DNA of 64,000 nt, taken from NCBI GenBank assembly GCA_035063765.1, contig JAPSFT010000001.1, positions 7,497 through 71,496 of the forward strand, read 5' to 3'. The notes beneath the pieces are model-generated. The model searched no databases. It worked only from the letters and a program-made list of their open reading frames with translations, and was not told the origin of the DNA. Within the stretch, counting starts at the first letter, position 1, and each line of letters starts with the position of its first letter. Made by a program: the position numbers and the translations under genes. This stretch comes from Deltaproteobacteria bacterium (lineage in GTDB: Bacteria > Myxococcota_A > UBA9160 > PR03). Of the stretch, positions 37,551 through 57,165 are shown in pieces.

Positions 37551-37646
37551 TCGCCCGGTACGCTCCGTCGCAGACAGCCCGTCGCGAGCCCGAGCCTAGC
37601 GCCATCGAGGCGGACGCAAAGTCGCGCGAGCGCTATCCAACCGCGC

Positions 37647-38666: not shown

Positions 38667-38669
38667 TGC

Positions 38670-40018: not shown

Positions 40019-40021
40019 GGG

Positions 40022-40483: not shown

Positions 40484-40524
40484 GGCCCCTCCTTCGCGAG
40501 CTCCCCATCGACGACCCGGGCTGG

Positions 40525-40540
40525 TGCAACCGCCATGCCC
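40525..40540 (-). promoter_or_regulatory. sigma-54-type (-24/-12) promoter candidate P1 for the CBS-1/CBS-2/crp operon
   Basis: The minus strand reads GGGCATGGCGGTTGCA, against the consensus TGGCAC-N5-TTGCW, with exact GG-N10-GC spacing. The predicted +1 is near 40514, 31 nt upstream of GTG 40483, with AGGAGG in between. Confidence 0.6.
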
Positions 40541-40666
40541 GTCTGCCCGTGAGCCCCGCGACGCCCTGGGTCGGCGGTTGTGGCGTTCTGGCGCATAGGA
40601 CATTGTCGGCGGGGCGACCTGTCGCGCTGGCCCTGGCGAGCCGGGTCACCGGCTCCCTCCCGCTCC

Positions 40667-40683
40667 GGGCATGGCTCGTGCAA
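40667..40683 (+). promoter_or_regulatory. sigma-54-type promoter candidate P2 for CBS-3
   Basis: The plus strand reads GGGCATGGCTCGTGCAA with exact GG-N10-GC spacing. It shares the GGGCATGGC core with P1. The predicted +1 is near 40693, 30 nt upstream of ATG 40723. Confidence 0.55.
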
Positions 40684-40722
40684 GCTCGCGCACGCTGGAG
40701 CCGACCGGGAGCCGCCGAGCCG

Positions 40723-41160
40723 ATGCCCCTCTACGACCGTCCCGTCTCGACCATCATGCGCCGCGAGTTTGCGAGTCTGCACCCGGACGACCGCCTGGAC
40801 CTCGCGGAGCAGATGATGAAGGTCGGGCGCGTGCGCCACCTGCCGGTGCTGGGCCCGGACGGCCACGTGGTCGGCATCGTCTCGAGCCGCGACCTGCTCG
40901 AAGCCTCGCTCAGCAGCGTGCTCGATCTCGATCCCGCTTCGCGGCGCGGGTTCCTCCGCTCGGTGGCGGTCGCCGATGTGATGCGGCCGGAGGTCGAGAC
41001 GGTCGCGGAGAGCACGTCGCTGCTCGGCGCGGCGAGCCGGATGATCCGCCACAGGATCGGCTGCCTGCCGATCGTGGGCCCCGACGGTGTCATGACCGGA
41101 CTCGTCACCGAGACCGATCTGCTGATCGCGGCCTATCTCCCGGAGCCCGCTCCGCGCTAG
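40723..41160 (+). CDS. CBS-pair protein (CBS-3)
   Basis: ATG at 40723 is in frame with ORF 40549..41160. CBS motifs are VGIVSSRDLL and GLVTETDLL. Confidence 0.85.
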   Translation: MPLYDRPVSTIMRREFASLHPDDRLDLAEQMMKVGRVRHLPVLGPDGHVVGIVSSRDLLEASLSSVLDLDPASRRGFLRSVAVADVMRPEVETVAESTSLLGAASRMIRHRIGCLPIVGPDGVMTGLVTETDLLIAAYLPEPAPR

Positions 41161-41182
41161 CTAGGCGCGCGGCGCGCGAGCG

Positions 41183-41590
41183 TCAGCGATCGAGCGCGAG
41201 GCGCACGAAGTCGCCCTCGGTCAGGATGCCCACGAGCCTGCCCTTCGCGACCACCGGCAGGCAGCCGAGCTTGCGCTCCAGCATGATGCGTGCCGCCTCG
41301 ACCAACGCGGTGTCGGGCTCGACCGTCACCGGATCGTTGGTCATCACCTCCTTGACGAGCAACATGCCCATCACCTTCTGCTGCGCGTGCGCGCCGTAGC
41401 CGAGCGCACGCGCCAGCGCGCCCCGGAACAGGTCGCGCTGCGAGAGCACGCCGACCACCTCCCCCGTCGCCTCGTCGAGCACCGGCGTATGGCGGATGCG
41501 CCCGAGCCGCATCAGGTCGTCCGCGATCACGAGCTGGTCGTTGCGCAGGACGGTCGCCACCTCGGTGCTCATCACGTCACGGACCTTCAT
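41183..41590 (-). CDS. CBS-pair protein (CBS-4)
   Basis: 135-aa ORF with the strong SD GGAGGGAG. The sequence reads MKVRDVMSTEVATV ... VGVLSQRDLF ... VGILTEGDFV. Confidence 0.9.
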   Translation of the reverse strand: MKVRDVMSTEVATVLRNDQLVIADDLMRLGRIRHTPVLDEATGEVVGVLSQRDLFRGALARALGYGAHAQQKVMGMLLVKEVMTNDPVTVEPDTALVEAARIMLERKLGCLPVVAKGRLVGILTEGDFVRLALDR

Positions 41591-41661
41591 CGAACTCCCT
41601 CCTCGTGCGCGCCGGACAACCCCTTGCTGCGCCTGGAGTGCAGGAGGATACTGGCTCGCTG

Positions 41662-42939
41662 GTGAAGGAAGGGCTCGACGACCGGCTCGACTACCTGGGG
41701 CTGACCGAGGACGATCGGCAGCTGCTCGCCCGCATCGGGCCGCTGCTCGAGCGCCACGCCGACCGCTTCGTCGCCGCCTTCTACCGCCACCTGCTCTCCT
41801 TCGACGAGACCCGGCGCCTGCTCGCCGACCCCGCGGTGACGGAACGCCTGCTGGGCAAGCAACGCGAGTACCTCCTGAGCCTCGCGACCCCCGGGCTCGA
41901 CGCGACCTACCTCGAGGAACGGATCCGGATCGGTGCCGTGCACGCCCAGGTCGGACTCGGCCCGCGCTACTACCTCGGTGCCTACGCGCTCTACTTCTCG
42001 CTGCTGGCGCCGGTGATCGCCTCCGATTGCGAGGGCGACACGGAGCTCGTCCAGCGCACCTTGAGTGCCCTCGTCAAGGTGCTGTTGCTCGACGCCGAGC
42101 TCGCGATGGAGTCCTACGTGGAGCGCCACGGGGAAGGGCTCACCCACCTGAACCGGGAGCTCGCCGCCGTGAGCCGCTCGCTCTCGCGCGAGGTCGAGGT
42201 CCAGGAGCAGGAGCTCCGGCAGACCCAGAAGCGCGCACGCGCCGCCGAGGACCTGGCGTCGGTCGCGACGCTCGTGGCGGGGCTCGCCCACGAGATCGGT
42301 ACGCCGATGGGGGTGATCCGTGGCCATGCGGAGGCGCTCGGCGGCGCGGTCCAGGGCGAACGGGCGCAATGGCGGCTGCGCACGATCCTGGAGCAGATCG
42401 ACCGCATCTCGAGCATCATCCGCGCGCTGCTCGACGTCGCGCGGCCACGCGAGCGCGTCCTGGTGCCGATCGAGCTCCCACAGGTGCTGGACAACGCGCT
42501 CGCCTTCCTGTCCGAGCGGATGCGGCGCCACGGGATCGAGATCGAGCGCCGCTACGACCGGGTGCCGGTGATCCACGGGGATCCCGACAAGCTCCAGCAG
42601 CTGTTCCTGAACCTGTTCCTGAACGCGGCCGACGCGATGCCCGACGGTGGACACCTTATCGTGTCGGTCGCGGCCTCGGATGGCCAGGCGGTCGGGATCC
42701 GGATCGCCGACGACGGCGTCGGCATCCCCGCCGCCGACCTCGAGAACCTGTTCACGCCCTTCTTCACGACCAAGCCGGCAGGCCGCGGCAGCGGACTCGG
42801 GCTGGTGGTCGCCCAGGGCATCGTCGCCGATCACGGCGGGCGCATCGAGGTGCTCAGCGCCCCCGGCCGCGGCACCGAGTTCGTGATCGAGCTGCCGCTG
42901 CGCGCTCAAACCGGGCCGGAGGGGCGGATCGGATCGTAG
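41662..42939 (+). CDS. globin-coupled sensor histidine kinase (protoglobin sensor + HisKA + HATPase_c)
   Basis: The N-terminal globin-coupled-sensor pattern reads LDYLGLTEDDRQLLARIGPLLERHADRFVAAFYRHL ... RIGAVHAQVGLGPRYYLGAY, giving a distal Tyr and a proximal His context. The H-box is LAHEIGTP, and N/G boxes are present (NLFLNAADAM, DDGVGI, GSGLGL). I prefer GTG 41662 as the start; the ORF-track start is GTG 41605. Confidence 0.85.
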   Translation: MKEGLDDRLDYLGLTEDDRQLLARIGPLLERHADRFVAAFYRHLLSFDETRRLLADPAVTERLLGKQREYLLSLATPGLDATYLEERIRIGAVHAQVGLGPRYYLGAYALYFSLLAPVIASDCEGDTELVQRTLSALVKVLLLDAELAMESYVERHGEGLTHLNRELAAVSRSLSREVEVQEQELRQTQKRARAAEDLASVATLVAGLAHEIGTPMGVIRGHAEALGGAVQGERAQWRLRTILEQIDRISSIIRALLDVARPRERVLVPIELPQVLDNALAFLSERMRRHGIEIERRYDRVPVIHGDPDKLQQLFLNLFLNAADAMPDGGHLIVSVAASDGQAVGIRIADDGVGIPAADLENLFTPFFTTKPAGRGSGLGLVVAQGIVADHGGRIEVLSAPGRGTEFVIELPLRAQTGPEGRIGS

Positions 42940-43334
42940 GCGCGGCGCAGGAGGTCGCTCTCGGTGAGCAGGCCGACCAGCCGCGGGCCGTCCGGGCCGG
43001 GCTCGACGATCGGCAGGCAGCCCGTGCGCGAGCGGGCGATCCGCGCCGCCGCCTCGTCGACGCTCATCGTGGTCCCGCCCGTCTCGGTGTCCGGCGACAT
43101 CACCTCTTCGACGCGCGTGCAGCGGCCGGCAAGGGCGGCCTCGACGAGGACCGCGAACGAGAGCACGCCGCGCAGGACCCCGTCGGCCACCACCGGGAGC
43201 TGGCGCAGGCGCGCCACCCGCATCATCTGGAGCGTCTCCGCGATCGAGGCACCCGGTGCGACGGAGAGCCAATGCCGCCGCATCACCCGAGCCACTTCGG
43301 CCCCGAACGTCCCCGTGCTTCCCTCGAACCCCAT
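42906..43334 (-). CDS. CBS-pair protein (CBS-5)
   Basis: 142-aa ORF with the motifs RGVLSFAVL and VGLLTESDLL. It overlaps the 3' end of the convergent kinase gene by 34 nt. Confidence 0.8.
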   Translation of the reverse strand: MGFEGSTGTFGAEVARVMRRHWLSVAPGASIAETLQMMRVARLRQLPVVADGVLRGVLSFAVLVEAALAGRCTRVEEVMSPDTETGGTTMSVDEAAARIARSRTGCLPIVEPGPDGPRLVGLLTESDLLRRAYDPIRPSGPV

Positions 43335-43346
43335 GCCGCCCGCAGG

Positions 43347-43362
43347 TGCAGACGGCGTGCCA
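43347..43362 (-). promoter_or_regulatory. sigma-54-type promoter candidate P3 for CBS-5
   Basis: The minus strand reads TGGCACGCCGTCTGCA with exact GG-N10-GC spacing. The predicted +1 is near 43336, only about 2 nt upstream of ATG 43334. Confidence 0.5.
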
Positions 43363-43472
43363 GCACCTCCCGGCGTCCCGGAGGCGGCGCGAGATCCAGA
43401 TCCGGGGCCTGATGCCTCGCTTCGTGTGCCAGGAGGGGTGCGATGCTGAGGCTGCGCGTCGTGAGCTGATTT

Positions 43473-43507
43473 GTCACATTCGGGTCATTTTGCCCTATAC
43501 GTGTGAC
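43473..43507. promoter_or_regulatory. inverted repeat GTCACA-N23-TGTGAC in the AT-richest patch between P3 and P4 (possible activator or Crp-type site)
   Basis: The sequence is gatTTGTCACAttcgggtcattttgccctatacgTGTGACctc. The arms are exact 6-mers. Confidence 0.3.
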
Positions 43508-43535
43508 CTCATCTGCAGCGCCCGTGCGTCGCGGG

Positions 43536-43551
43536 TGGCACGTAACGTGCT
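43536..43551 (+). promoter_or_regulatory. sigma-54-type promoter candidate P4 for the bEBP/USP/APH-P-loop/CBS-6 operon
   Basis: The plus strand reads TGGCACGTAACGTGCT with exact GG-N10-GC spacing. The predicted +1 is near 43562, about 4 nt upstream of ATG 43566. Confidence 0.55.
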
Positions 43552-43565
43552 CCTGGGATACCCCG

Positions 43566-44953
<1,388 letters not shown>

Positions 44954-44957
<4 letters not shown>

Positions 44958-45865
44958 GCCGCTTCCGGACGATCCTCGTCCCGACCGACTTCTCGGCCCA
45001 CGCGCACGCCGCGATCGAGCTGGCCCGCACGCTGGCTCACACAGGCGGCGGGGCGGTCCACCTGCTGCACGCCTACGAGGTGCCGCTCGGCACGATCTCG
45101 CCCTACGGCGTCGCGCTGCCCGACGGCCTGCTGGCGCAGGTGCGCGACGCAGCCGCGCGCCGGCTCGAGAAGGCGGCCCACGGCTTCGTCGAGGCGAAGG
45201 TCTCCTGCGAGACCCACGTCGCACACGGACCTGCCGCGGACGCGATCACCGAGGCGGCACAGCGCCTGCACGCCGACCTGGTCGTGATGGGCACGCGCGG
45301 GCTGAGCGGATGGAAGCACGCCCTGCTCGGCAGCGTGGCCGAACGCACCGTACGCAGCTCGCCCTGCCCCGTGCTGACCTTCCGTACGCCCGACCGCGCC
45401 GAAGGAGGATCCGTGGGCCACTTCCGCAAGCTCCTCGTGCCCCTCGACTTCTCGAAGCACTCCGACGCCGCCCTCGCGCTCGCGGTCGAGCTCGCGAGCG
45501 AGCACGCCGCCGAGGTCCACCTGCTCCATGCCTACGAGCTGCCCGCCGCCGTGACGATGGCCTACGGCGTCGCGATCCCCCAGGCGGTCTGGGACGGGGT
45601 CCAGGAAGCCGCCCTCGCGCGCCTCGAGGAGGGACGCAAGCGCCTCGAGGCGGCCGGCATCCGCGGCACCACGCACCTCGTGACGGGGCCCGCCGCAGAT
45701 GCCATCGCGCAAGCTGCCGAGAGCGTGGCTGCGGACCTGATCGTGATGGGCACCCGCGGCCTCACGGGGCTCAAGCACGTGCTGCTCGGCAGCGTCGCGG
45801 AGCGCACGATCCGCACCGCGCCCTGTCCCGTCCTCACGCTCAAGTCGGACGCGCAGGACGCCTGA
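44954..45865 (+). CDS. tandem universal stress protein (two UspA domains)
   Basis: GTG at 44954 overlaps the upstream stop (GTGA). There are two repeats of ILVPTDFS ... LLHAYE ... DLVVMGTRGLSG..H.LLGSVAERT.R...CPVLT. Confidence 0.9.
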
Positions 45866-45877
45866 CGGAGAGGCCGC

Positions 45878-47521
45878 ATGCCTCCCCCTGTCGAGCCGCT
45901 CCCCGCCGGGCTCGCTGCGGCGCTCGCGCGGCCGGCGGCACACCCCTTCGACGCGAGCGCTGCGGCGGGCGTCGAGCACGTCCAGACCCACCTCTCGCAC
46001 GTGTACCTGACGGGAGCGCGGGCCTGGAAGCTCCGCAAGGCCGCCGCGCTCGGCTTCGTCGACTTCGCGACGCGCGCGAAGCGCAATCGCGACTGCGCCC
46101 GCGAGGTCCGGCTCAACCGCCGCCTCGCACGCGACGTGTACCTGGGCGTCGCCCCGGTCGAGGCCGATCCCGCCGGCGGCTTCCGGATCGGTGCGCTCGC
46201 CCCGGACGCGGACGAGGAGACCCTGGCGCGCGACCCGCACGAACACGTGGTCGCGATGCGCCGGCTGCCGGCGGGGCACGACGCGCTCGCGCTCCTCGAG
46301 CGCGGCGCGCTCCACGCGCGCCACCTCGACGCGGTCGCCGAGCGGCTCGCCCGCTTCCACGCCGAGCACGGCCTCGGCGTCCCCGCGCCCTTCACACCCG
46401 ACGCCTGGCGCGCCCGGATCGAGGGCCCCGTGCGCGACAACCTGCGCCTGCTCGAGCCGGCCGCGGGCCGGCTCTTCCCGCGCTCGACCTGGCGCCAGGT
46501 CGAGCAGCGGACGAGCGCCTTCGCCGACGCCCACGCCGGCCGCTTCGAGGCGCGCCGCCGCGAGGGCCGCGCCGTCGACGGCCACGGCGACGTGCACCTC
46601 CAGCACGTCTGGTTCGAGCCGGGCCGCGCCGAGCCGCTGCTCGTCGACTGCATCGAGTTCCGCGACGACCTGCGTCGGATCGACGCCGCCTCCGAGGTGG
46701 CCTTCCTCGCGATGGACCTGCGCTACCGGCGCCGGGCGCAGCTCGCGGCGCGCTTCCTGCGCCGCTACGCGGCCGCCCGCGACGACTTCGGCCTCTACGG
46801 CGTGCTCGACTACTTCGTGAGCTACCGGGCCGCGGTGCGCGCGAAGGTGGCGGCGCTCGCCGCCGACGACGGCGCGATCGAGCCCGGCCAGCGCGCCGCC
46901 GCGGCGGCGAGCGCGCGCCGCCACCTCGCGCTCGCAGCGCGCGCCCTGGCGCCGCCGCGCGCGGGCGGGCTGGTGCTGGTCGGGGGCCTCGTCGGCAGCG
47001 GCAAGAGCAGCGTCGCCGAGACGATGGCCGACACCGCCGGAGGCGTCGTCGTCGCGTCGGACCGGGTGCGCAAGGCGCTCGCGGGGCTCGCTCCCACCGC
47101 GCGCGGCGGAGCCGCACGGGGCCTCTACGACAGCGCTGCGAAGGAGCGCGTCTACCAGGCGCTGCTCGAACGGGCGGAGCCGATCACGGCCTCGGGCCGG
47201 ATCGCGATCCTCGACGCCACCTACGCCCTCGAGCGCCACCGGGCGGCCGCGCTCGCCTGGGCGCGCGGGCGTGGGATCGAGCCGGTGCTCGTCGAGGCGC
47301 GCTGCCCGCACGAGACCACCCTCGCGCGCCTTGCGGCGCGCGCCGCCGCCGGCCGGGATCCCTCCGATGCCGGCCCGGAGCTGCTCGCCTGGAGCGAGCG
47401 CCACTACCAGCCGCCGCGCGCGGGCGTCATCGTCATCGAGACCCATCAGCCGGATTGGCGGACCCGGGCGCGTTCCCTCGCCCGCCGTCTGCACCCGACC
47501 CGGGAGCCAGCGGAGGAGTGA
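45878..47521 (+). CDS. aminoglycoside-phosphotransferase-like kinase domain fused to P-loop (AAA_33-type) kinase domain
   Basis: 547-aa ORF (SD GGAGAGG). The N-terminal APH-like catalytic loop is HGDVHLQHVW ... DCIEF. The C-terminal Walker A is GGLVGSGKSS. Confidence 0.8.
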   Translation: MPPPVEPLPAGLAAALARPAAHPFDASAAAGVEHVQTHLSHVYLTGARAWKLRKAAALGFVDFATRAKRNRDCAREVRLNRRLARDVYLGVAPVEADPAGGFRIGALAPDADEETLARDPHEHVVAMRRLPAGHDALALLERGALHARHLDAVAERLARFHAEHGLGVPAPFTPDAWRARIEGPVRDNLRLLEPAAGRLFPRSTWRQVEQRTSAFADAHAGRFEARRREGRAVDGHGDVHLQHVWFEPGRAEPLLVDCIEFRDDLRRIDAASEVAFLAMDLRYRRRAQLAARFLRRYAAARDDFGLYGVLDYFVSYRAAVRAKVAALAADDGAIEPGQRAAAAASARRHLALAARALAPPRAGGLVLVGGLVGSGKSSVAETMADTAGGVVVASDRVRKALAGLAPTARGGAARGLYDSAAKERVYQALLERAEPITASGRIAILDATYALERHRAAALAWARGRGIEPVLVEARCPHETTLARLAARAAAGRDPSDAGPELLAWSERHYQPPRAGVIVIETHQPDWRTRARSLARRLHPTREPAEE

Positions 47522-47970
47522 TGCCCGAGCGATCCGTCGAGAGCGTGATGCAGCGCGACGTCGTGACCCTGCGCCCCGAGAGCAGCGCGCGCGAGGCCGA
47601 GCGCCTGCTCGCCACGCACCGCATCGGCGGCGCGCCGGTGGTGGACGAGGCCGGGCGCGTGGTGGGCGTCCTCTCCCAGAGCGACCTCGGCCGGCTCGAG
47701 GCCGAGCGCCCGAGCACAGCGGCTGCGGGCGCCTTCTTCAGCGACGTCGACGACTACCGCGACATCGGGGCGCTGCCCGCCGCGGCGAGCGTGGTGCCGG
47801 TGGCGCGCTTGATGAGCCGGGAGGTGCTCTCGGTCTCACCCGCGGCGACGCTCGCCGAGGCGGCCCGGCGCATGCGCGAGCGGCGCGTGCACCGGCTCCT
47901 GGTCGTCGAGAACGGGGCGCTGCGTGGCGTGGTCAGCGCCTTCGACCTGCTGGTCGCGATCACCGGGTGA
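47521..47970 (+). CDS. CBS-pair protein (CBS-6)
   Basis: ATG at 47521 overlaps the upstream TGA by 1 nt (GTGATG) and is in frame with ORF 45310..47970. CBS motifs are VGVLSQSDL and RGVVSAFDLL. Confidence 0.85.
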   Translation: MPERSVESVMQRDVVTLRPESSAREAERLLATHRIGGAPVVDEAGRVVGVLSQSDLGRLEAERPSTAAAGAFFSDVDDYRDIGALPAAASVVPVARLMSREVLSVSPAATLAEAARRMRERRVHRLLVVENGALRGVVSAFDLLVAITG

Positions 47971-48037
47971 TGGCCGGCCGGGCGAGCGCTCCCCCCGCCG
48001 CTCATCCCTCGCGCAGCGAACGGTAGGCGCGCAGGTG

Positions 48038-49149
48038 GCGGAGCGCGCCGGCCGGATCGCCGAGCCGGTCGTGGAGCCGCGCGTCGTGGCGGAGGTGCGC
48101 TACGCCGAGGGCACCCGCGACGGGCGCCTGCGCCAGCCCGTCCTGCTGCGCCTGCGCGAGGACAAGAGGCCCGCCGGGATCGATGCGCCGCCCGGCCCGC
48201 GAGGCGGGCGCCCGAAGGTCCCGCGAAGCCGAAGGAGAAGAGCACGAAACCGAAGCCCGGACACGAGCTTGTCCTCACGAACCTCGACAAGACCTTCTGG
48301 CCGGACGAGGGCCTCACCAAGGGCGACCTGCTCGGCTACTACCGCGCGATCGCCCCCTGGCTCCTGCCCTACCTGCGCGACCGCCCGCTCACGCTCGTCC
48401 GGCACCCGGACGGGATCACGGGCAAGGCGTTCTTCCAGAAGGACGCGCCCGCCTCGGCGCCCGCGTGGGTGCGGCGCGAGCGGCTCTGGAGCGAGCACGG
48501 CCGTCGCGAGATCCGCTTCTTCGTCGTGGACGACGTGGACGCGCTGCTCTACGTCGCGAACCTCGGCGCCATCGCGCTCCACGTGCAGGCGAGCCGGGTC
48601 GCCGACCTCGCGCATCCCGACTGGTGCATCCTCGACCTCGACCCCAAGGGCGCACCCTTCCGCGACGTCGTCACGATCGCACGTACCCTCCATGGGCTCA
48701 CCGGCGAGATCGGGCTCCCGGCCTTCCCGAAGACCAGCGGCTCGGCGGGTCTGCACGTGCTCGTGCCCCTCGGAGGGCGCCTCACCTTCGCGAAGGCGCG
48801 CACGCTCGCGGAGCTCCTCGCGCGCGAGGTGGTGGCGCGCCACCCCGGGATCGCGACGCTCGCGCGGCGCGTGGCTGCTCGCGGCGGGCGCGTCTACGTC
48901 GACACCGGCCAGAACGGGCACGGGAAGCTCCTCGTGGCGCCCTTCTCGGTGCGCGCGCTGCCCGGGGCGCCGGTCTCGATGCCGCTGCGCTGGAGCGAGC
49001 TCGGCCCGCGCCTCGACCCGCGGCGCTTCACGATCCGCAACGCGCTCGCGCGCCTGCGCCGGCTCGGCGAGGATCCCCTCGCGCCGGTCCGGGGCCCCGC
49101 GCCCGACCTGCTCGGGGCGCTCGAACGGCTGGCCCGGCGGGGCCGCTGA
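48038..49149 (+). pseudogene. ligD: LigD remnant: last ~40 codons of the ATP-dependent ligase (OB) domain, a frameshift, then an apparently intact primase-polymerase (LigD-Pol) domain lacking any ATG/GTG/TTG start
   Basis: One frame reads AEPVVEPRVVAEVRYAEGTRDGRLRQPVLLRLREDKRP, the ligase-domain C-terminus. The next frame reads PAKPKEKSTKPKPGHELVLTNLDKTFWPDEG ... CILDLDP ... SGSAGLHVLVP ... VYVDTGQNGHGKLLVAPFSVR. That frame has no canonical start between 47971 and GTG 48469. Confidence 0.6.
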
Positions 49150-49200: not shown

Positions 49201-50088
49201 TTGCGTCGTCTGTCTCTCCTCGCGATCGCGCTCGCCGCCCGGGTCTGCGTGGCGCACGCCGCGCCGCCGCCGCCGCTCGGCGTGGTCGCCACCATCGAGC
49301 CGATCGCGATGATCGCGCGCGAGCTCGCCGGCGCGCACTTCACCGTCTCGACCCTCGTGCCGCCCGGCGCGAGCCCCCACACCTTCGATCCGCGCCCCGG
49401 CGACGTCGTGCGGGTGGCACGAGCCGCGCTCCTGATCGCGGTCGGGGGCGGCCTCGACGGCTGGACGCAGCGCCTGCTCGGCGCGAGCGGGCGCCCGGTC
49501 GAGACGCTCGTGCTGCTCGAGCTGCCGGACCTCGCGCCGCTGCCCGCGGCGGGCGCGGCGTCGCGCGGGTCCGATCCCCACGTCTGGCTCGACCCGCTCC
49601 GGGTGCGCGACGTGCTCGCGCCCGCCATCGCCGCCCGCCTGGAACACCTCGATCCCGCGCACGCCGCCGACACGGCGGCGCGGCTCGCCGATCTCCAGGC
49701 GCGCCTCACGAGCCTCGATCGCGACCTGCGCGCCGTGCTCGCGGGCCCGCGCCGCGCCTACGTGGCCTTCCACGCCGCCTGGCGCTACTTCGGGGCGCGC
49801 TACGGGCTGGAGGAGATCGGCGTGATCGAGGAGGCCCCCGGCGAGGAGCCGGGCCCGCGCGAGCTGGCGGAGCTGGTCGCGGCGGCGCGCGCCGTTGGCG
49901 TGCGCGCGATCCTGATCGAGCCGCAGCTCGACCCGCGCGTGGCGCGCACGCTGGCCGCGGAGTTCGGCGCCACCACCATACTGGTCGATCCCAACGGCGA
50001 CCCCACGGATCCTGAACGAGCCGGCTACGAAGGGCTCCTGCGCTGGAACGCCCGGGCCTTCGCGCGAGCGCTGGGCGGGAGCTCATGA
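49201..50088 (+). CDS. znuA: zinc ABC transporter substrate-binding protein ZnuA-like
   Basis: The start is TTG and a signal peptide is present. Cluster-9 SBP motifs are GASPHTFDPRPGD, SDPHVWLDP and HAAWRYF. Confidence 0.88.
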   Translation: MRRLSLLAIALAARVCVAHAAPPPPLGVVATIEPIAMIARELAGAHFTVSTLVPPGASPHTFDPRPGDVVRVARAALLIAVGGGLDGWTQRLLGASGRPVETLVLLELPDLAPLPAAGAASRGSDPHVWLDPLRVRDVLAPAIAARLEHLDPAHAADTAARLADLQARLTSLDRDLRAVLAGPRRAYVAFHAAWRYFGARYGLEEIGVIEEAPGEEPGPRELAELVAAARAVGVRAILIEPQLDPRVARTLAAEFGATTILVDPNGDPTDPERAGYEGLLRWNARAFARALGGSS

Positions 50089-50831
50089 GCGAGGTCGCGA
50101 TCCGCTTCGAGCACGTCGACGTGCTCCGCGACGGCCGGCTCGTGCTCGAGGACGTGAGCTTCGCGGTGGGCACGGGTCAGTTCGTCGGCGTGGTGGGCCC
50201 GAACGGCGCCGGCAAGACGACGCTCCTGCGCGCGCTCCTCGGCCTCCTGCCGGTGGCGCGCGGGCGCATCGAGGTGCTGGGGCGGCCGCCGGGCGCGGCG
50301 CGCGGCGAGATCGGCTACGTGCCCCAGCGACACATGATCGCCCCGGGCTTCCCGGCGACCGTCCGCGACGTGGTGGCGATGGGCCGGCGCGGGCGCCTGC
50401 GCGCGGGCGACCGCGAGGCGGTGGAGCGCGCCCTCGCGCGCGTGGACCTGCTCGAGCGCGCGGGCCGGCCGGTGGGCCGGCTCTCGGGCGGCGAGCAGCG
50501 GCGCGTGATGCTCGCCCAGGCGCTCTGCGCGGGCGCGCGCCTGCTGGTCCTCGACGAGCCCACGATCGGCCTCGACCTGCCGGCCGAGCAGGCCTTCTAC
50601 GCGCTGCTGCGCGGCCTCGACACCACCGTGCTCGCGGTCTCCCACGACCTCCTCGCGCTCGCCTCGGTGGCCGACGAGCTGATCTGCATCAACCGCACGA
50701 TGCACGTGCACGGCAACCCGGACGACGTCGTCCACAGCCACGCGCTGCGCGCCGCCTACCACTGCGAGTTCGACTTCCTGGCGGGCGAGCTCGCGCACCA
50801 CTCGAAGCCCTCCGCGGACCCGCGCTCCTGA
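50085..50831 (+). CDS. znuC: zinc ABC transporter ATP-binding protein ZnuC-like
   Basis: [20 protein letters not shown] and LLVLDEP are present. ATGA overlap with znuA. Confidence 0.9.
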
Positions 50832-51625
50832 TGCTGGAGCTCGCCTTCATGCAGCGTGCGCTGCTGGCCGCCGCGGCGATCGGCCTGGTGTGCGGCGCCC
50901 TCGGCTTCTTCGTCGTGCTGCGCCGGCTGGCCTTCATCGGGGTCGGGATCTCGCACTCGGCGATCGGCGGCGTCGCGCTCGCCGTCGTGCTCGGCTGGCC
51001 GCCGCTCGGGACGGCGGCGGTCTTCGCCGTGGCTGTGGCGCTCGCGATCGCGCGCCTCGCGCGCAGCGGGCGCCTGTCCGAGGACGCCGTGATCGGGATC
51101 TTCTTCTCGGGCTCGCTGGCGCTCGGGGTGGTGCTCTTCAGCCTGCGCCGGGGCTACCAGCAGGACCTCTTCGGCTACCTGTTCGGCAACGTGCTCGCGA
51201 TCACGCCGGGCGAGCTCGCGCTGCTTGCGGCCGCCGGCGCGGCGGTGCTGGCGGCGCTCGCGATCAGCTTCCGCCCGCTGCTCTTCCTGGCCTTCGACGA
51301 GGAGGTGGCGCGCGCCTACGGCCACCCGGTGGCCGCGCTCGAGACGGGGCTGCTGGTGCTCCTGGCCGTGACCGTGGTGATCGGGGTGCGGCTGGTCGGC
51401 GTGATCCTGGTCGAGGCCCTGCTCGTGGTCCCCGCCGCCACCGCGACCCTCTGGGCCACCCACTACCGGGCCCAGCTCGCCCTCGCGATGGCCCTCGGGG
51501 CGAGCGCCGGCGTCCTGGGCCTCGCCGCCGCCTACGCCTTCGACCTGGCGGCCGGCGGCACGATCGTGCTGGTCTCGGTGGCGGGCTTCTTCGTGTCCCT
51601 CGTGCTCCGGCCCCGGCCGGGATGA
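50831..51625 (+). CDS. znuB: zinc ABC transporter permease ZnuB-like
   Basis: 264-aa multi-TM ABC-3 family permease. Its start overlaps the znuC stop by 1 nt. Confidence 0.9.
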
Positions 51626-51765
51626 CCCCTCCCGGTCCCGGGACCACGACCCGGCCCCGGGATCGCGTGCCGGGGCCCTGGGCCGGCGCGATCGTTTTGC
51701 TATCTACAGGCGCCCCGGCGGGACCCGTCGCGCCGGAGCCTGCTCTTCACGAGGGACGATCGCCG

Positions 51766-52071
51766 ATGGCCAAGACCTCCCAGGTGCACCGGGACCTGCG
51801 CCGCAAGGCGCTGATCCAGAAGCACGCCGGCAAGCGCGCCGAGCTGCGCCAGAAGCTCCAGGACCCGGAGGTCTCGATCGAGGAGAAGCTGGCCGCCCAG
51901 CTCGCCTTCTCGAAGCTGCCGCGCAACTCGTGCCCCACGCGCAAGAAGAATCGCTGCGCGATCACCGGCCGCGCGCGCGCCTACTACAAGAAGTTCGGGA
52001 TCTCCCGCATCGCGCTGCGCGAGCTCGCGCTGGCGGGGCAGCTCCCGGGCGTGCGCAAGTCGAGCTGGTAG
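51766..52071 (+). CDS. rpsN: 30S ribosomal protein S14, long cysteine-poor (C-minus) form, located outside any spc-type operon
   Basis: ATG at 51766 is in frame with ORF 50890..52071. The sequence reads [28 protein letters not shown] ... [40 protein letters not shown]. The protein is 101 aa and has no CxxC pairs. Confidence 0.92.
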
Positions 52072-52084
52072 GAGCGAGCGCGCC

Positions 52085-52330
52085 GTGAAGCCCGGCATCC
52101 ATCCCGACTACCACAAGGTCATCTTCGTCGACAGCGCGAGCGGGACGGAGTGGACGACGCGCTCGACGATGGGCTCGAGCGAGACGCGCGAGGTGGACGG
52201 CGAGCAGGTCCCGGTGATCCGGCTCGAGGTCTCGGCCGTGAGCCACCCGTTCTGGACCGGCCAGCTCCGCGAGGCCGCGCGCGGCGGCAAGGTCGACGAG
52301 TTCCGGCGCCGCTACGGCAAGAAGAAGTAG
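52085..52330 (+). CDS. rpmE2: 50S ribosomal protein L31 type B (no cysteines, zinc-independent form)
   Basis: The sequence reads MKPGIHPDYHKVIFVDSASGTEW ... SHPFWTGQ. The CxxC positions of zinc-binding L31 are replaced (VDSAS). Confidence 0.92.
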   Translation: MKPGIHPDYHKVIFVDSASGTEWTTRSTMGSSETREVDGEQVPVIRLEVSAVSHPFWTGQLREAARGGKVDEFRRRYGKKK

Positions 52331-52339
52331 GAGACCCCG

Positions 52340-52621
52340 ATGCCCCGCCGCTGCGAGCTCACCGGGACGCGCGTGTCGTTCGGCCACAACGTCTCGCACT
52401 CGAACCGCAAGTCGAGCCGGACGTTCGCGCCGAACCTCCAGAGCGTGTCGCTGCTCTCCGACGGCCTCGGCCGCTCCGTGCGCCTGCGCGTCTCGACGCG
52501 CGCGCTGCGCTCCGTCCAGAAGCGCGGTGGGCTCGACGCCTTCCTGCTCGGCACGCCCGACGACCGGCTTCCGCCCGAGGCCCTCGAGCTCAAGCGCCGC
52601 CTGCGCCGCGCGATCGGCTAG
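52340..52621 (+). CDS. rpmB: 50S ribosomal protein L28
   Basis: The sequence [34 protein letters not shown] is the canonical L28 N-terminus. Confidence 0.92.
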
Positions 52622-52655
52622 CGCGACGCCCGCCGCGGCGAGCGGACGCGAGGGA

Positions 52656-52994
52656 ATGACGGAGCGCGCCACACAGCGACGGCTCGCAGCCGCGCTCGCG
52701 GCGGCCGCGCTCCTCGCCCTCGGCGCGCCGCTCCACCAGCACCACGGCGTCTCCGAAGCATCGGCGCAGACGATCACCGGCCACGCCACGGCGGCGGACG
52801 TGGCCCACGGGGGCGCCGGCTGCCCCGCCTGCCAGACGAGCGCGACCCGCGCCGGGGCGGCGCCGCCCGGCATCGCCTCGCTGCCGTTCGCCCTCCCGGC
52901 GCTCCGCCTCGACGCGGCCCGCACGCCGGCGGCTCCATCCACCGAGACGCGTCTCCCGAGTCCGCCCCGCGGCCCACCGTCCCCGATCGCCTGA
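52656..52994 (+). CDS. small secreted His/Cys-containing hypothetical protein
   Basis: ATG at 52656 is in frame with ORF 52527..52994. It has a signal peptide (LAAALAAAALLALGAP), then HQHHG and HGGAGCPAC, and a Pro/Ala-rich tail. Confidence 0.5.
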   Translation: MTERATQRRLAAALAAAALLALGAPLHQHHGVSEASAQTITGHATAADVAHGGAGCPACQTSATRAGAAPPGIASLPFALPALRLDAARTPAAPSTETRLPSPPRGPPSPIA

Positions 52995-53108
52995 CTCGAA
53001 TCCCGTCACGAGTCATCCGGCGACCGCGTGCGTCGCGCCCTCGAGCGCGTGGCCGCGGCCGCCCGCATCGTGCGCGCGCCGGCATGACGGCGCGCGCCGG
53101 AGGGGACC

Positions 53109-54599
53109 ATGCGGAGCTCCGCGTTCCACCTGTCGATTGCCTTCCTGTGCCTTTCCTGTGCGACGGAGGCCGGCGCCGCCGAGCCGGTGCCGCCCACGAT
53201 CCAGCAGCAGCTCGACGCCCTCGCTCGCGAGAACGCCGAGCTGCGCCGCACCGTCGAGACGCTCGCCGACGAGGTGCGCGCGGCGCGCGACGAGGCGCGC
53301 GCGGCCGGCGCCCAGGCGCCCGCCGGGGCGGCGCCGATCGCCGGCGCCCCCCCCGACGGCGCACTGCTCTCGCTGGGCGGCGGCCGCCTCCAGCTCCTCG
53401 ACCTCTCGCTCGACGTGCTCGCCGCGGCCGGCTGGTCGGACGCCACCAACGACCAGCTCGGGCTGCTCGAGGGCGGCGGCCACGACCCGCGCCGGCGCGG
53501 CTTCACGCTGCAGCAGGCGGAGCTCTCGATGGCGGGCGCGGTCGACCCGTACTTCACGGGCGAGGCGCACCTGGTCTACTTCATCGATCCCGAGGGCGAA
53601 TCGCGCTTCGAGCTCGAGGAGGCGTTCGTCACCACCACGAGCCTGCCCTTCGGGCTCCACGAGCGCGGCGCGCAGCTCGAGATGGGGCACTTCTTCACCG
53701 AGTTCGGCCGCATCAACCCCCAGCACCCGCACCAGTGGGACTGGATGGACCAGCCCGTCGTGAGCACGCGCTTCTTCGGCGAAGACGGGCTGCGCGCGCC
53801 CGGCGTGCGGCTCGGCTGGCTGCTCCCGGTGCCGTGGTTCTCCGAGGTCCACCTCGGCGCGCAGAACGCCAACGGCGAGACGATGCTCTCGTTCCTGGCC
53901 AGCGACGAGGCCTTCGAGGAGCGCCCGATCGGGGGGCGGCCCTTCGCCGACGTCGACGTGCGCTCGCCGAAGGACCTGCTCTACCTGGCGCGCTGGGTGA
54001 ACGGCGTCGACCTCTCGGACACGACGAGCGCGCAGCTCGGCGTCTCCTACGTGACCGGCCCGAACGCGACCGGGCCGGACGGGAGGACCCACATCGTGGG
54101 GGGCGACGTCGTCGTGAAGTGGCGTCCGCTCAGCGCCGAACACGGCTGGCCCTTCGTGACCTTCCAGGCCGAGCTGATGGGCCGCCGCTACGAGGCCGAC
54201 GGCTTCGACCTGTGCCTCGACGAGGACTGCCAGGACCTGGTCGGGGTCGGCAGCGACGACCTCGAGGACTGGGGCTTCTACGCGCAGCTCCTCTACGGCT
54301 TCCGGCGCAACTGGGCCGCTGGCTTCCGCGTCGAGCACGCGGGCGGCAGCGGCCACGACTTCGACCAGGACAGCTCGCTCGACGACGGCGCGCCGGTCTT
54401 CGCCTCGCGCGAGGACGACCCGTTCCGGAGCGACCGCACCCGGATCGCGCCGCTGCTGGTCTTCCATCCCTCGGAGTTCTCGCGCCTGCGCCTGCAGGCC
54501 AACTACGACTGGACCGAAGGCCCGGAGCTCGACGACGCGCTCTCCGTGTGGGCCGGGATCGAGTTCCTGTTCGGCGCCCACGCGGCGCACGCGTACTAG
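53109..54599 (+). CDS. outer-membrane beta-barrel (porin-like) protein with N-terminal coiled coil and His-rich C-terminus
   Basis: 496-aa ORF with a signal peptide (LSIAFLCLSCATEAGAA) and a heptad-like segment (IQQQLDALARENAELRRTVETLADEV). Long stretches alternate hydrophobic and polar residues. It ends ...FLFGAHAAHAY, with the terminal aromatic typical of OMP barrels. Confidence 0.7.
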   Translation: MRSSAFHLSIAFLCLSCATEAGAAEPVPPTIQQQLDALARENAELRRTVETLADEVRAARDEARAAGAQAPAGAAPIAGAPPDGALLSLGGGRLQLLDLSLDVLAAAGWSDATNDQLGLLEGGGHDPRRRGFTLQQAELSMAGAVDPYFTGEAHLVYFIDPEGESRFELEEAFVTTTSLPFGLHERGAQLEMGHFFTEFGRINPQHPHQWDWMDQPVVSTRFFGEDGLRAPGVRLGWLLPVPWFSEVHLGAQNANGETMLSFLASDEAFEERPIGGRPFADVDVRSPKDLLYLARWVNGVDLSDTTSAQLGVSYVTGPNATGPDGRTHIVGGDVVVKWRPLSAEHGWPFVTFQAELMGRRYEADGFDLCLDEDCQDLVGVGSDDLEDWGFYAQLLYGFRRNWAAGFRVEHAGGSGHDFDQDSSLDDGAPVFASREDDPFRSDRTRIAPLLVFHPSEFSRLRLQANYDWTEGPELDDALSVWAGIEFLFGAHAAHAY

Positions 54600-54608
54600 G
54601 AGGCCGCC

Positions 54609-55622
54609 ATGACCCTGCGACAGCTCGCGCTTCCGATCCTCTTCGTCGCCATGCTCGCGCCGGGGGGCGCCCGCGCCGACGCGCTGCGGGTGGTGGCGAC
54701 CACCCCGGACCTCGCCGACCTCGCCCGGCAGGTGGGCGGCGACGCGGTCGAGGTCACCTCGCTCGCCAAGGGCCCCCAGGACGTCCACTTCGTCGAGCCG
54801 CGCCCGAGCTTCGTGAAGGAGCTGCACCGGGCGGAGCTGCTGATCCGTGTGGGCATGGGGCTCGAGAGCGGCTGGCTACCCCCCCTGCTCGGCGCAGCCC
54901 GCAACCCCCGCATCCAGCGCGGCGCCGCAGGCTCCCTCGACGCCTCGACGGCGATCGTGCCGCGCGAGGTGCCGCAGGCCCGGGTCGACCGCTCGATGGG
55001 CGACGTGCACCCGTTCGGGAACCCGCACTACCTGCCGGATCCGCTGAACGGGCTGCGCGTCGCGGGCGCGATCCGCGACCGGCTCTCGGCGCTGCGTCCG
55101 GACCAGGCGCGCGCGTTCGCCGCGCGCTACCACGCGTTCGCTGCCCGGCTCGTCGAACGGCTGGTGGGCGCGGAGCTCGCGGGGCAGCGCACGCCGGCCG
55201 AGATCGCGGCCGCCGTCGAGGCAGGCCGGCTCCCGGCGCTGGTCGCCGAGGCGGGTGCGTCGCTCGGGGGCTGGCTCGGTGCGATCGGGACCGGGCCGCC
55301 GCGCAAGGCGGTGGAGGACCATCGCGCGTGGATCTACCTGGCCGAGCGCTTCGGGCTCGAGCTGGTGGCCGCGCTCGAGCCGCTGCCGGGCATCGCGCCG
55401 ACCACGCGCCAACTCCAGGAGGTGGTCGAGCAAATGCAGGCGGAACGCGTGAATCTGATCCTGTCTACCCCGTACTTCTCGCCGCGCCACGCGGAGTTCG
55501 TCGCGGAACGCACGGGCGCGCGCATCGTCGAGCTCGCCCACCAGACCGGCAGCCGTCCGGGCACCGACGACTACCTGGCGACGGTCGACTTCAACGTGCG
55601 TGCGCTGGTCGGGGCGCGCTGA
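54609..55622 (+). CDS. second metal (Zn/Mn-type) ABC transporter substrate-binding protein
   Basis: A signal peptide is present. The motifs LRVVATTPDLADL, QDVHFVEPRPS, GDVHPFGNPHY and DHRAWIYL indicate a cluster-9 SBP of a different subtype from the znuA at 49201. Confidence 0.85.
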   Translation: MTLRQLALPILFVAMLAPGGARADALRVVATTPDLADLARQVGGDAVEVTSLAKGPQDVHFVEPRPSFVKELHRAELLIRVGMGLESGWLPPLLGAARNPRIQRGAAGSLDASTAIVPREVPQARVDRSMGDVHPFGNPHYLPDPLNGLRVAGAIRDRLSALRPDQARAFAARYHAFAARLVERLVGAELAGQRTPAEIAAAVEAGRLPALVAEAGASLGGWLGAIGTGPPRKAVEDHRAWIYLAERFGLELVAALEPLPGIAPTTRQLQEVVEQMQAERVNLILSTPYFSPRHAEFVAERTGARIVELAHQTGSRPGTDDYLATVDFNVRALVGAR

Positions 55623-56320
55623 TGCCGGTGCTCGCGTTGCGCGGCGCGCGCATCGGCCACGGCGGGCGCAGCGTGCTCGCCGGCGTGGACTGGGAGGTCC
55701 ACGCCGGCGAGAGCTGGTTCGTGCTCGGCCCGAACGGCGCCGGCAAGACCTCCCTCCTCCACACCGTGCTGGGCCTGCTGCCGCTCCAGGGCGGGCGGCT
55801 CGAACGCGACCCCGAGCGCGCGAGCCTGGCGCGGATCGGCTTCGTGCCGCAGCGCTGCGAGCTGAGCCCGACGCTGCCGACGACCGTCCGCGAGTTCGTG
55901 ACGCTCGGGCGGGTCGGCCTGCCTCGCGCGCGCGCTGGCGAGCTCGCCGAGGCCCTCGCACGCGCGGGCCTCGCGGGGCTCGAGGAGCGCAGCTACTGGT
56001 CGCTCTCGGGCGGCCAGCGGCAGCGCGCGCTGGTGGCGCGGGCGCTCGTGCGCCGGCCCGCCCTCCTGATCCTCGACGAGCCCACCGAGGGCCTCGATCC
56101 GCCCAGCGAGGACGCCTTCCTCGAGGTCGTGGACGCGCTCCAACGCGAGCGGAGGGTGACGGTGCTCTTCGTCACGCACCGGCTCGCGCTGGCCGCGCGG
56201 CGCGCGAGCCACCTCGCGCTGGTGGACGCCGGCACCGTGGTCGCCGGGCCACGCGAGGAGATGCTGGGCCGGCCCGAGCTGCGGCGCGCCTTCGGATCGG
56301 CGCTGGCGGGCCTCGCGTGA
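55622..56320 (+). CDS. metal ABC transporter ATP-binding protein
   Basis: ATG at 55622 overlaps the upstream TGA by 1 nt. [19 protein letters not shown] and LLILDEP are present. Confidence 0.9.
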   Translation: MPVLALRGARIGHGGRSVLAGVDWEVHAGESWFVLGPNGAGKTSLLHTVLGLLPLQGGRLERDPERASLARIGFVPQRCELSPTLPTTVREFVTLGRVGLPRARAGELAEALARAGLAGLEERSYWSLSGGQRQRALVARALVRRPALLILDEPTEGLDPPSEDAFLEVVDALQRERRVTVLFVTHRLALAARRASHLALVDAGTVVAGPREEMLGRPELRRAFGSALAGLA

Positions 56321-57165
56321 TCGAATCGTTCCTCGAGTCCTGGGCGCTGTTCCAGACCACGTATCTCGCGGGAACGGCGCTGGCGGCGCTGCTCGCGCTG
56401 GTGGGCGTGTGGGTGGTGGCGCGCGAGCAGGTCTTCCTCGGCGCCGCGATCGGCCAGGCCTCGACGCTCGGCATCGCAGCCCTGCTGTGGGGCGCCGGGC
56501 TCGGCGCAGCGGCGCACTGGCCGTGGCTCGAATCGCGCGCCGCCGCCGACGTCGCCGCGGTGGCGGCGTCGGTGACGACGGCGCTGCTGACCGCGAGCCC
56601 GCGGCGCGCAGGTGCGGCGGGCGCCGAGGCGCGCACGGCGTGGATCTTCCTCGCCGCTGCGAGCCTGCCGGTGCTGCTGCTCGCGCACAGCCCGCACGGG
56701 CTCGAGGAGGTGCACCGGCTGATGTTCTCGACCCTGATCGGCGCCCACGAAGGGGAACTCGCGGTGTTCGCGGCCCTGGCGGCAGCGAGCATGCTCGGGG
56801 CTGCGTGCTGGAGCGACCGGCTCCGGCTGCTCGCGATGGACCCGGAGATGGCGGCGGCGGTCGGGATCCCGGCCCGGCGCTGGCTGCGCGGCGTGGCGCT
56901 GTGGCTCGGGCTCGCGATCGGCCTCTCGATCCGCTCCTCGGGTCTCATCTACACCCTCGGATGTTTGGTGCTCCCGGCGCTCGTGGCGCGCAACCTGTGT
57001 CGCGAGGTGCGGCCGATGCTCTGGGTAGCGCCGGCCGTCGCGGCGGCATCCGCCCTCACGGCCTTCGTAGTCGCCAATGCCGCCGACGTGCCGCCGGCGC
57101 ACGCCGCGGTCGCGCTCCTTTGCGCGCTCGTGGCCCTGACCGCACCCCGGCACCGGACTGCCTGA
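56317..57165 (+). CDS. metal ABC transporter permease (ABC-3 family)
   Basis: GTG at 56317 overlaps the upstream stop (GTGA) and is in frame with ORF 55600..57165. The protein is multi-TM. Confidence 0.85.
   Translation: MIESFLESWALFQTTYLAGTALAALLALVGVWVVAREQVFLGAAIGQASTLGIAALLWGAGLGAAAHWPWLESRAAADVAAVAASVTTALLTASPRRAGAAGAEARTAWIFLAAASLPVLLLAHSPHGLEEVHRLMFSTLIGAHEGELAVFAALAAASMLGAACWSDRLRLLAMDPEMAAAVGIPARRWLRGVALWLGLAIGLSIRSSGLIYTLGCLVLPALVARNLCREVRPMLWVAPAVAAASALTAFVVANAADVPPAHAAVALLCALVALTAPRHRTA

Follow-up and report, generated by a model that had tools for sequence, protein, structure and literature searches.

Remnants of ligD at 47971-49149

The window analysed here is a stretch of 64,000 nucleotides from the Deltaproteobacteria bacterium contig JAPSFT010000001.1, whose source organism is high in GC (74.8%). 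Positions 47971-49149 contain the remains of a gene for the non-homologous end-joining (NHEJ) DNA ligase LigD. The region was translated in its three forward frames and matched to Pfam and NCBIfam profiles, and parts of the ligase (Lig) and primase-polymerase (Pol) portions of LigD were found in two different frames as follows.

48071..48204, plus strand, frame congruent to 2 mod 3: what is left of the ligase OB domain of LigD, ending at about 48166, followed by the start of the Lig-Pol linker
48205..49149, plus strand, frame congruent to 1 mod 3: remainder of the linker, a complete LigD Pol domain and the stop codon
48274-48312, plus strand: Pol motif LTNLDKTFWPDEG
48628-48645, plus strand: Pol motif ILDLDP with the catalytic DLD (48634-48642) intact
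48736-48759, plus strand: Pol motif SGSAGLHV
48892-48927, plus strand: Pol motif VYVDTGQNGHGK

The frame congruent to 2 mod 3, which reads ...VAERAGRIAEPVVEPRVVAEVRYAEGTRDGRLRQPVLLRLREDKRPAGIDAPPGPRGG... across the region, translated at 48071-48166 as VEPRVVAEVRYAEGTRDGRLRQPVLLRLREDK. This OB tail matched positions 58-94 of the 94 positions of Pfam DNA_ligase_A_C (PF04679, E 1.3e-9, above the gathering score) and positions 260-300 of the 302 of TIGR02779. It represents the final ~40 residues of the domain, with 37 of the 94 Pfam profile positions left. An earlier note, made from the letters of this stretch alone, had recognised the OB end and placed it immediately after the sixth CBS gene; the identification held, while the direct contact did not, as a 31-nucleotide (nt) spacer and an 81-nt minus-strand gene stub lie between the CBS gene and the OB tail.

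The frame congruent to 1 mod 3 (...APEGPAKPKEKSTKPKPGHELVLTNLDKTFWPDEG..., stop codon 49147-49149) carried a Lys/Pro linker followed by a Pol domain that matched LigD_Prim-Pol (PF21686) over positions 1-253 of 254 (E 9.8e-85) and TIGR02778 with 232 bits (cut-off 214.7). The earlier description of a complete-looking domain behind such a linker was borne out, with the motifs at the positions listed, and the VDTGQN motif was intact as well. Matches in the PDB were 5dmu (the best, E 1e-54), 5op0/6sa0, 2iru and 2fao, all of them stand-alone or excised LigD-type polymerases. The DLD (DxD), SGSAGLHV (SGxxGxH) and VDTGQN (D..QN) motifs aligned with their equivalents in 5dmu, 5op0 and 6sa0, and by these alignments the domain has the complete AEP fold with its catalytic Asp triad and nucleotide-binding motif.

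The remainder of LigD was missing. No ATP-dependent ligase adenylation domain (PF01068) was matched in any frame of 47971-49149, and the phosphoesterase (PE) domain (PF13298) present in the orthologues of contigs L185, L012 and JGI 3300056388 had no tblastn match in the window. Searches with the PE-Lig part from L012 and the full LigD from L013, a comparison that the earlier note had proposed, placed the remnant at residues 729-1082 of the L013 open reading frame (ORF), the only part matched in the window, with the OB tail at residues 729-769. The proposed search for ku and a second ligD was made by tblastn, with the Ku and full-length LigD proteins of related contigs as queries, and neither was found within the 64-kb window. 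Of the parts of a functional LigD locus, only the Pol domain was present; an adenylation domain, a complete OB domain, a PE domain, a single ORF with a start codon and a neighbouring ku were all lacking.

Start codons and annotated reading frames

The two frames are separated by a single missing base, and three possible starts have been used in annotations or gene calls of the region.

48204..48205: frameshift site with one C missing (GGCCGGG to GGCGGG), from alignments with L007-L010, L094 and L174-L183
48469..48471, plus strand: GTG, first canonical start in the Pol frame
48004..48006, plus strand: ATC, start of GenBank MEB2343159.1 (381 amino acids), the sole table-11 initiator of the Pol frame 5' of the domain
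48035..48037, plus strand: GTG, start of a 371-codon ORF in in-frame sister haplotypes, where P0001, P0123 and P0124 begin

The jump between frames that the earlier note had located at 48185-48215 was traced to the C missing after 48204. Its statement that the Pol frame has no ATG, GTG or TTG between 47971 and 48469 was also correct; by the ORF list and a codon scan the frame is open from 47971 and its earliest such codon is GTG 48469. Initiation there would omit the linker and ~68 N-terminal residues of the Pol domain, and gene callers reported the resulting 226-amino acid ORF on 21 Logan contigs.

MEB2343159.1, from a metagenome-assembled genome (MAG) labelled 'Deltaproteobacteria bacterium' (287-kb contig), presents the frameshifted allele as an intact 381-amino acid 'non-homologous end-joining DNA ligase'. 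This protein (P0122) is identical to the window frame-1 translation from ATC 48004, and its first ~67 residues are an out-of-frame, Arg-rich reading of the antisense of the gene stub and of the OB tail.

GTG 48035 lies ~77 codons 5' of the Pol domain. This GTG and the following 11 codons are the antisense of the minus-strand stub, which is the 3' end of a gene coding a MerR helix-turn-helix (HTH) and TPR protein (merR/TPR). An equivalent antisense GTG sits within the intact merR/TPR gene of contig L184. The GTG 48035 start is best regarded as fortuitous and the 371-codon ORF as a by-product of an in-frame junction, because the start and the first 12 codons are merR/TPR antisense that is also found in the intact L184 gene.

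Ancestral gene order in related contigs

Relatives of the locus were found through homologues of the upstream AAA_33 protein (L184, 88% identical; JGI 3300056388, 85%; L185, 78%). The genes flanking the remnant in the window were the following.

47521..47970, plus strand: CBS-pair gene, 149 amino acids (Pfam CBS, E 1.9e-31)
49201..50088, plus strand: znuA (Pfam ZnuA, E 7.7e-65), right ancestral neighbour of the lost segment

The CBS-pair gene is the final member of a usp-AAA_33-CBS run and the left ancestral neighbour of the lost segment; it occupies the equivalent position in L184, L185 and a JGI contig. In the relatives, plus-strand usp, AAA_33 and CBS were followed by merR/TPR and ku in the opposite orientation (minus strand), then by ligD, again on the plus strand, and by znuA, znuC, znuB and the genes for S14, L31 and L28. 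In intact relatives znuA is directly 3' of ligD on the same strand. The window has this order minus three genes (merR/TPR, ku and the full ligD). Full-length ligD genes were present in the JGI 3300056388 contig (852 amino acids) and L185 (843 amino acids) with PE, Lig, OB and Pol domains. An intact orthologue was thus found at the syntenic position in these two contigs, and in L184 up to the 5' end of ligD.

The earlier note had taken the lost gene for a Lig-Pol type ligD without its 5' two-thirds. Loss of the 5' part was upheld, while the ancestor was instead of the PE-Lig-Pol type (843-852 amino acids) and ~486 of 843 codons (58%) were gone. Relatives with the same flanks had a full-length ligD at exactly that position.

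In the region upstream of the remnant (35863-47970), called a 'stress island' in the earlier note, AAA_33 and a Usp gene are accompanied by six CBS-pair genes and by a protoglobin-histidine kinase, a sigma54 response regulator and a Crp-family regulator. This region was colinear with L185 at ~80%, and L184 was colinear with window 35863-48082 at 90.8% nt identity before continuing into merR/TPR, ku and the 5' end of ligD, within which the contig stops. The CBS/Usp region is a conserved ancestral chromosomal neighbourhood, not mobile and with nothing inserted, because L184 is colinear through it and continues into merR/TPR-ku-ligD.

The closest GTDB genome hit was L013 (a Myxococcota MAG, ~70-71% amino acid identity), which was partly syntenic and had a divergent ku beside a full PE-Lig-Pol ligD. 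All contigs with adequate upstream sequence, down to 55-78% LigD identity, carried a divergent ku and a full-length ligD. Of 161 related loci, many of them short contigs, 114 had a ku gene adjoining ligD, as did all syntenic relatives.

Several related sequences were considered as possible parallels of the truncated form and set aside. Proteins of ~360 amino acids with an OB tail and a Pol domain (P0063, P0094 and others) were rejected as a stand-alone family, as they are the 3' halves of split, frameshifted full ligD genes beside ku, probably the product of assembly indels. P0002 (77% identity) starts at the VEPR motif, but no stop interrupts its frame before the contig edge and further ligase-like sequence lies upstream, so it was uninformative on truncation. 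In L011 (4573-7089) and L012 (4587-7104), two unrelated assemblies, a full ligD was called as overlapping split ORFs with the break inside the OB domain. The resulting ~360-amino acid proteins, with an OB tail and a Pol domain, resemble the architecture of the remnant in protein databases; the splits probably stem from indel errors (one of the contigs has the label 6x).

A MerR-HTH and TPR protein of ~280 amino acids is encoded immediately 3' of ku on the same strand in L184 (12101-13854, minus strand), L185 (12656-14436, minus strand), L011 and L012. Such a gene was beside ku in 54 of 98 ku-ligD loci among L013-L173, from Myxococcota, Gemmatimonadota, Acidobacteriota and others. Judged by this association, the protein could be a conserved third component or regulator of the NHEJ module; a literature search found no paper connecting MerR/TPR proteins with Ku or LigD.

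The deletion junction

The left part of the locus ends, and the ligD remnant begins, at a short repeat.

48071..48082: deletion junction, where a single copy of the 12-nt direct repeat GTGGAGCCGCGC survives
48002..48082, minus strand: 3' stub of the MerR-HTH/TPR gene, 26 codons and stop, reading ARLHDRLGDPAGALRHLRAYRSLREG*

Homology to L184 (CBS and the merR/TPR 3' end) stops at 48082 and homology to the L185 ligD begins at 48071, an overlap of exactly 12 nt. An exact copy of the 12-mer was present in the merR/TPR 3' end of L184 (plus-strand reading), and L185, L093 and L095 had one in the OB domain of ligD, where it encodes VEPR. The ligD-side copy was seen in relatives at 78-82% identity, the contig of the closest relative ending inside ligD. 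From base composition we estimate the chance of a 12-nt identity at a random junction as ~1e-6. Deletions between direct repeats arise through slipped mispairing or microhomology-mediated joining.

On the left, window 47400-48082 aligned continuously to L184 11523-12181 (86.5%), and 23 of the 26 residues of the stub were identical to the C-terminus of the L184 MerR/TPR protein. On the right, the remnant was 82.5% identical at the nt level to the L185 ligD. The missing segment measured ~3.28 kb in L185 coordinates and included ~260 merR/TPR codons, the entire ku gene, the promoter region between the divergent ku and ligD, and the first ~486 of the 843 ligD codons (58%). The junction lies between the 26-codon stub and the OB domain at the 12-nt repeat, and not at the edge of the upstream region where the earlier note had put it. 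Of the insertion or deletion scar suggested there, the geometry of the repeat supports a deletion, and the colinearity of the flank with L184 speaks against an insertion. Decayed ligase homology 5' of 48071, as a MAFFT alignment of "GRIAEPV" with "GRALAPL" might imply, was rejected since this stretch is antisense merR/TPR.

Haplotypes and the frameshift

Base by base comparison of 21 contigs with the window gave four haplotypes.

H1: window and L001-L005, frameshifted, 100% nt identity to the window
H1': L006, frameshifted, 99.9% nt identity
H2: L174-L183, in frame, 99.7-99.8% nt identity
H3: L007-L010 and L094, in frame, 98.0-98.5% nt identity

The 15 in-frame contigs compared share the large deletion without the frameshift, have one additional C after window 48204 and all carry 48228A. 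The indel was completely linked to the single-nucleotide polymorphism (SNP) 48228 G/A, and also to 49895-49896 (TT in the frameshifted contigs) wherever contigs cover those positions. Six contigs from six different runs were also aligned over 47900-48520; five matched the window exactly, one differed by four SNPs and all six were frameshifted. The frameshift is a genuine SNP-linked allele and not a read or assembly error, because it is linked to SNPs and repeated in at least six sequencing runs. Loss of the C is the derived state because full-length relatives must be in frame.

A cluster at 90% identity contained three in-frame variants, P0123 (18 contigs), P0001 (4) and P0124 (3), plus P0122. 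P0001 was 371 amino acids long and 97% identical. The Pol domain of the in-frame P0123 was identical to that of the window and the frameshift is therefore very recent, in keeping with the recent decay that the earlier note had allowed for. That note had also named a single frame with an upstream start as an outcome that would overturn its reading. Such a frame exists in the sister haplotypes, with the fortuitous antisense GTG 48035 as its putative start, and does not exist in the window, which belongs to a true frameshift haplotype.

The window differs from the frameshifted, otherwise identical L006 by four SNPs in a 25-nt part of the OB tail (48143-48167), with two amino acid changes (F37L and G45R), and these SNPs may be changes that followed the frameshift or a small recombination patch.

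Selection on the remnant

Between H1/H2 and H3 the Pol region had 18 synonymous and 8 nonsynonymous differences, with a ratio of nonsynonymous to synonymous changes per site (pN/pS) of 0.17. Most of the synonymous differences fell in one tract.

48654..48816: cluster of 16 derived substitutions in the window haplotype, 14 of them synonymous and 2 nonsynonymous, from the polarised codon table

Compared with the P0001 haplotype and all outgroups, the derived states in this tract belong to the window and P0123 haplotypes. The tract was 3-7% further from every outgroup than H3, and its flanks were equidistant. It was probably imported by recombination, as the clustering suggests; an unsampled lineage with a functional ligD could have been the source, and local hypermutation is the other candidate origin. 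Outside the tract there were 4 nonsynonymous and 5 synonymous differences (pN/pS ~0.3), for which a hand calculation gave no significant departure from neutrality on few counts. Functional neighbours were equally noisy, with nonsynonymous to synonymous counts of 9:3 for AAA_33 and 4:4 for znuA. The dN/dS ratio was rejected as a test of function since one clustered tract and small counts dominate it.

The AAA_33 counts come from the 3' part of that gene (46919-47521, window against L007; pN/pS ~1.2), and the adjacent CBS gene had one difference. The excess at the AAA_33 C-terminus may be low-divergence noise or a fast-evolving tail.

Conservation was also scored on a 119-sequence family alignment at 130 highly conserved positions. 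Intact close relatives deviated at 4-5 of these positions and truncated alleles at 8-9 (9 in the window). P181A and L353R were present in all truncated alleles at sites that are 95-96% conserved, and in no other aligned sequence including the close intact relatives. F37L was confined to H1 and Q254K to H1 and H2, while L171P was private to P0124 at a site that is Leu in 116 of the 119 sequences. The pattern suggests that the relic may be under relaxed constraint.

Origin and status of the locus

The region is very probably a non-functional pseudogene relic, formed by a microhomology deletion across merR/TPR-ku-ligD and then a 1-nt frameshift. Relatives have an intact orthologue in the syntenic place, and the region carries disabling lesions, namely truncation, loss of the start and promoter, and the frameshift. 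In the order of events traced, the ancestor had the arrangement of the relatives, with plus-strand usp, AAA_33 and CBS, minus-strand merR/TPR and ku, a plus-strand ligD of the PE-Lig-OB-Pol type and znuACB. One deletion of ~3.3 kb between the copies of the repeat in the merR/TPR 3' end and the ligD OB domain then produced the junction now present in the window, likely through RecA-independent slipped mispairing or microhomology-mediated end joining, between which the sequence cannot discriminate. The junction was by chance in frame with the antisense GTG and so created the chimeric 371-codon ORF that the sister haplotypes contain, in which 12 codons of antisense origin precede the OB tail, linker and Pol. 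In the window haplotype the later loss of 1 nt in the linker (after 48204) uncoupled this ORF from Pol.

We infer that the Pol domain is not expressed as a working protein, because it has no native promoter, ribosome-binding site, start codon, ligase domain or adjacent ku; that it appears intact would be because the decay is recent. Inactivation of NHEJ ligation, as the earlier note had proposed, was supported for this locus by the loss of the ligase part, and within the window ku was deleted as well.

Several observations weigh against a relic. The Pol domain has no internal stop and its catalytic motifs are all present, and the pN/pS of 0.17 over Pol would fit continuing purifying selection. 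Public data contain no fewer in-frame 371-codon alleles than frameshifted ones (25 contigs compared with 15-21). Read-through expression from the CBS operon may occur. The absence of ku and ligD covers the 64-kb window, the NHEJ status of the whole genome being beyond its scope.

The foremost alternative is that the chimeric ORF, from GTG 48035 or from ATC 48004 in the frameshifted allele, is translated as a new stand-alone, Ku-less primase-polymerase. We consider this unlikely. It is favoured by the complete Pol domain with its intact catalytic motifs, matched best in the PDB by the stand-alone NHEJ polymerase of Methanocella, by the retention of in-frame alleles in two haplotype groups 1.6% apart at the nt level, by the low pN/pS and by the existence of stand-alone Prim-Pols with repair roles (PMC5663958). 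However, the start and the first 12 codons are the antisense of the 3' end of another gene and the native promoter region is gone. The window haplotype is out of frame, ATC is a very rare initiator and the first ~67 residues read from it are out of frame and arginine-rich. The known partner of the Pol domain, ku, is missing from the locus. Near-invariant sites are substituted in all truncated alleles, with L171P in one in-frame allele, and the low pN/pS comes mostly from the one clustered tract. The corresponding history is likewise doubtful: deletion and fusion would have given birth to a gene with a de novo N-terminus, kept in frame in the P0123 and P0001 haplotypes and being lost in the window haplotype. 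If true, the antisense of the merR/TPR 3' end would have given the gene its start codon and a 12-residue leader, and a neo-gene would have been caught at a polymorphic stage.

A sequencing or assembly error as the source of the frameshift, with the window truly having the in-frame 371-codon ORF, is very improbable. The site does lie in an extremely GC-rich stretch (GGCCGGGCG) and in-frame contigs at 99.8% identity do exist. However, the same C is absent from 21 independently assembled contigs of at least 6 runs (accessions in four well-separated ranges) and from the NCBI MAG. The deletion also tracks 48228G and 49895-49896 TT, and a random error would not follow a haplotype.

Insertion of the 'stress island', or of its AAA_33-CBS end, into ligD with displacement of the 5' part has next to no likelihood. 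The more distant L013, which has no AAA_33-CBS between usp and ku, is what such an insertion would predict, but three closer relatives have usp, AAA_33 and CBS right beside an intact merR/TPR-ku-ligD. In addition, L184 is colinear with the window over 12.2 kb up to the junction base and the merR/TPR stub stands between CBS and the ligD remnant. The synteny comparison that the earlier note had suggested thus went against an insertion, as relatives with the island retain ku and ligD.

A programmed -1 ribosomal frameshift or transcriptional slippage connecting both frames is equally remote; both frames are open over the site and a -1 event anywhere from 48035 to ~48265 would yield a Pol product, but no X XXY YYZ slippery heptamer and no homopolymer of at least 5 nt were found within 48035-48270, near-identical sister alleles are simply one base longer and the start of the upstream frame is fortuitous.

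Read as a pseudogene relic, the locus makes one loss of NHEJ visible at base-pair resolution, with an exact 12-nt repeat and the ancestral arrangement preserved in relatives at ~91% nt identity. In the population, a series of alleles leading from the in-frame to the frameshifted relic is still segregating. The annotation is a pitfall, as the remnant appears as a 381-amino acid 'ligase' in GenBank and as a 226- or 371-amino acid "LigD" from gene callers. Surveys that count Pol-domain hits would mis-score the NHEJ status of the organism because the relic is annotated as LigD.

Neighbouring genes and signals

Downstream of the ligD remnant (49201-57165, plus strand) is a zinc-starvation, Zur-regulon-like cluster. 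It comprises znuA-znuC-znuB, paralogues of the ribosomal proteins S14, L31 and L28 (51766-52621), two ORFs of unknown function and a second znuA-ABC-permease set (54609-57165).

A hairpin past the CBS stop codon (47964-48011) was dropped as a candidate terminator since its folding was at the level of shuffled sequence (z = 0.19). No T-run terminator and no sigma-70-like promoter were detected near the ligD remnant.

Comparison with known systems

The remnant corresponds to the 3' 42% of a three-domain LigD of the PE-Lig-Pol, Pseudomonas aeruginosa type (PRK05972/TIGR02776), which is divergent from ku. The OB tail, Lys/Pro-rich linker and Pol domain are colinear with the full-length proteins of the syntenic relatives. 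In contrast to these, the remnant has no PE domain, adenylation domain, start, promoter region or adjacent ku, ~60% of the OB domain is missing and the frame is broken in the linker.

Stand-alone Prim-Pols such as those of Methanocella paludicola (5dmu) and the mycobacterial Prim-PolC/PolD1 and PolD2 (5op0, 6sa0) likewise have a Pol domain without an attached ligase, with DxD...D and SGxxGxH motifs. However, the known examples have their own starts and are in operons with ligC or ku/lig (PMC5663958), whereas the neighbours of the remnant are CBS and znuA. The remnant has neither its own start just 5' of the domain nor ligC or ku/lig as an operon partner. Unlike these enzymes, it has as its only upstream start one derived from antisense sequence, an attached OB fragment and, in the window, a broken frame.

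As in bacterial deletions between short direct repeats, a likeness drawn from general knowledge, one 12-nt copy is left and the 3.3 kb between the copies is lost. Bacterial NHEJ has been gained and lost sporadically. The locus is a new instance of a known phenomenon, a unitary pseudogene from a short-repeat deletion, and otherwise ordinary gene decay. Comparative work has inferred the joint loss of ku and ligD to be the likeliest route of NHEJ loss (Sharda et al. 2020, PMC7719229), and here too both genes were disabled in a single event. That study inferred losses from presence and absence on a tree, whereas at this locus the lesion itself is visible together with its intermediates, the in-frame and the frameshifted relics.

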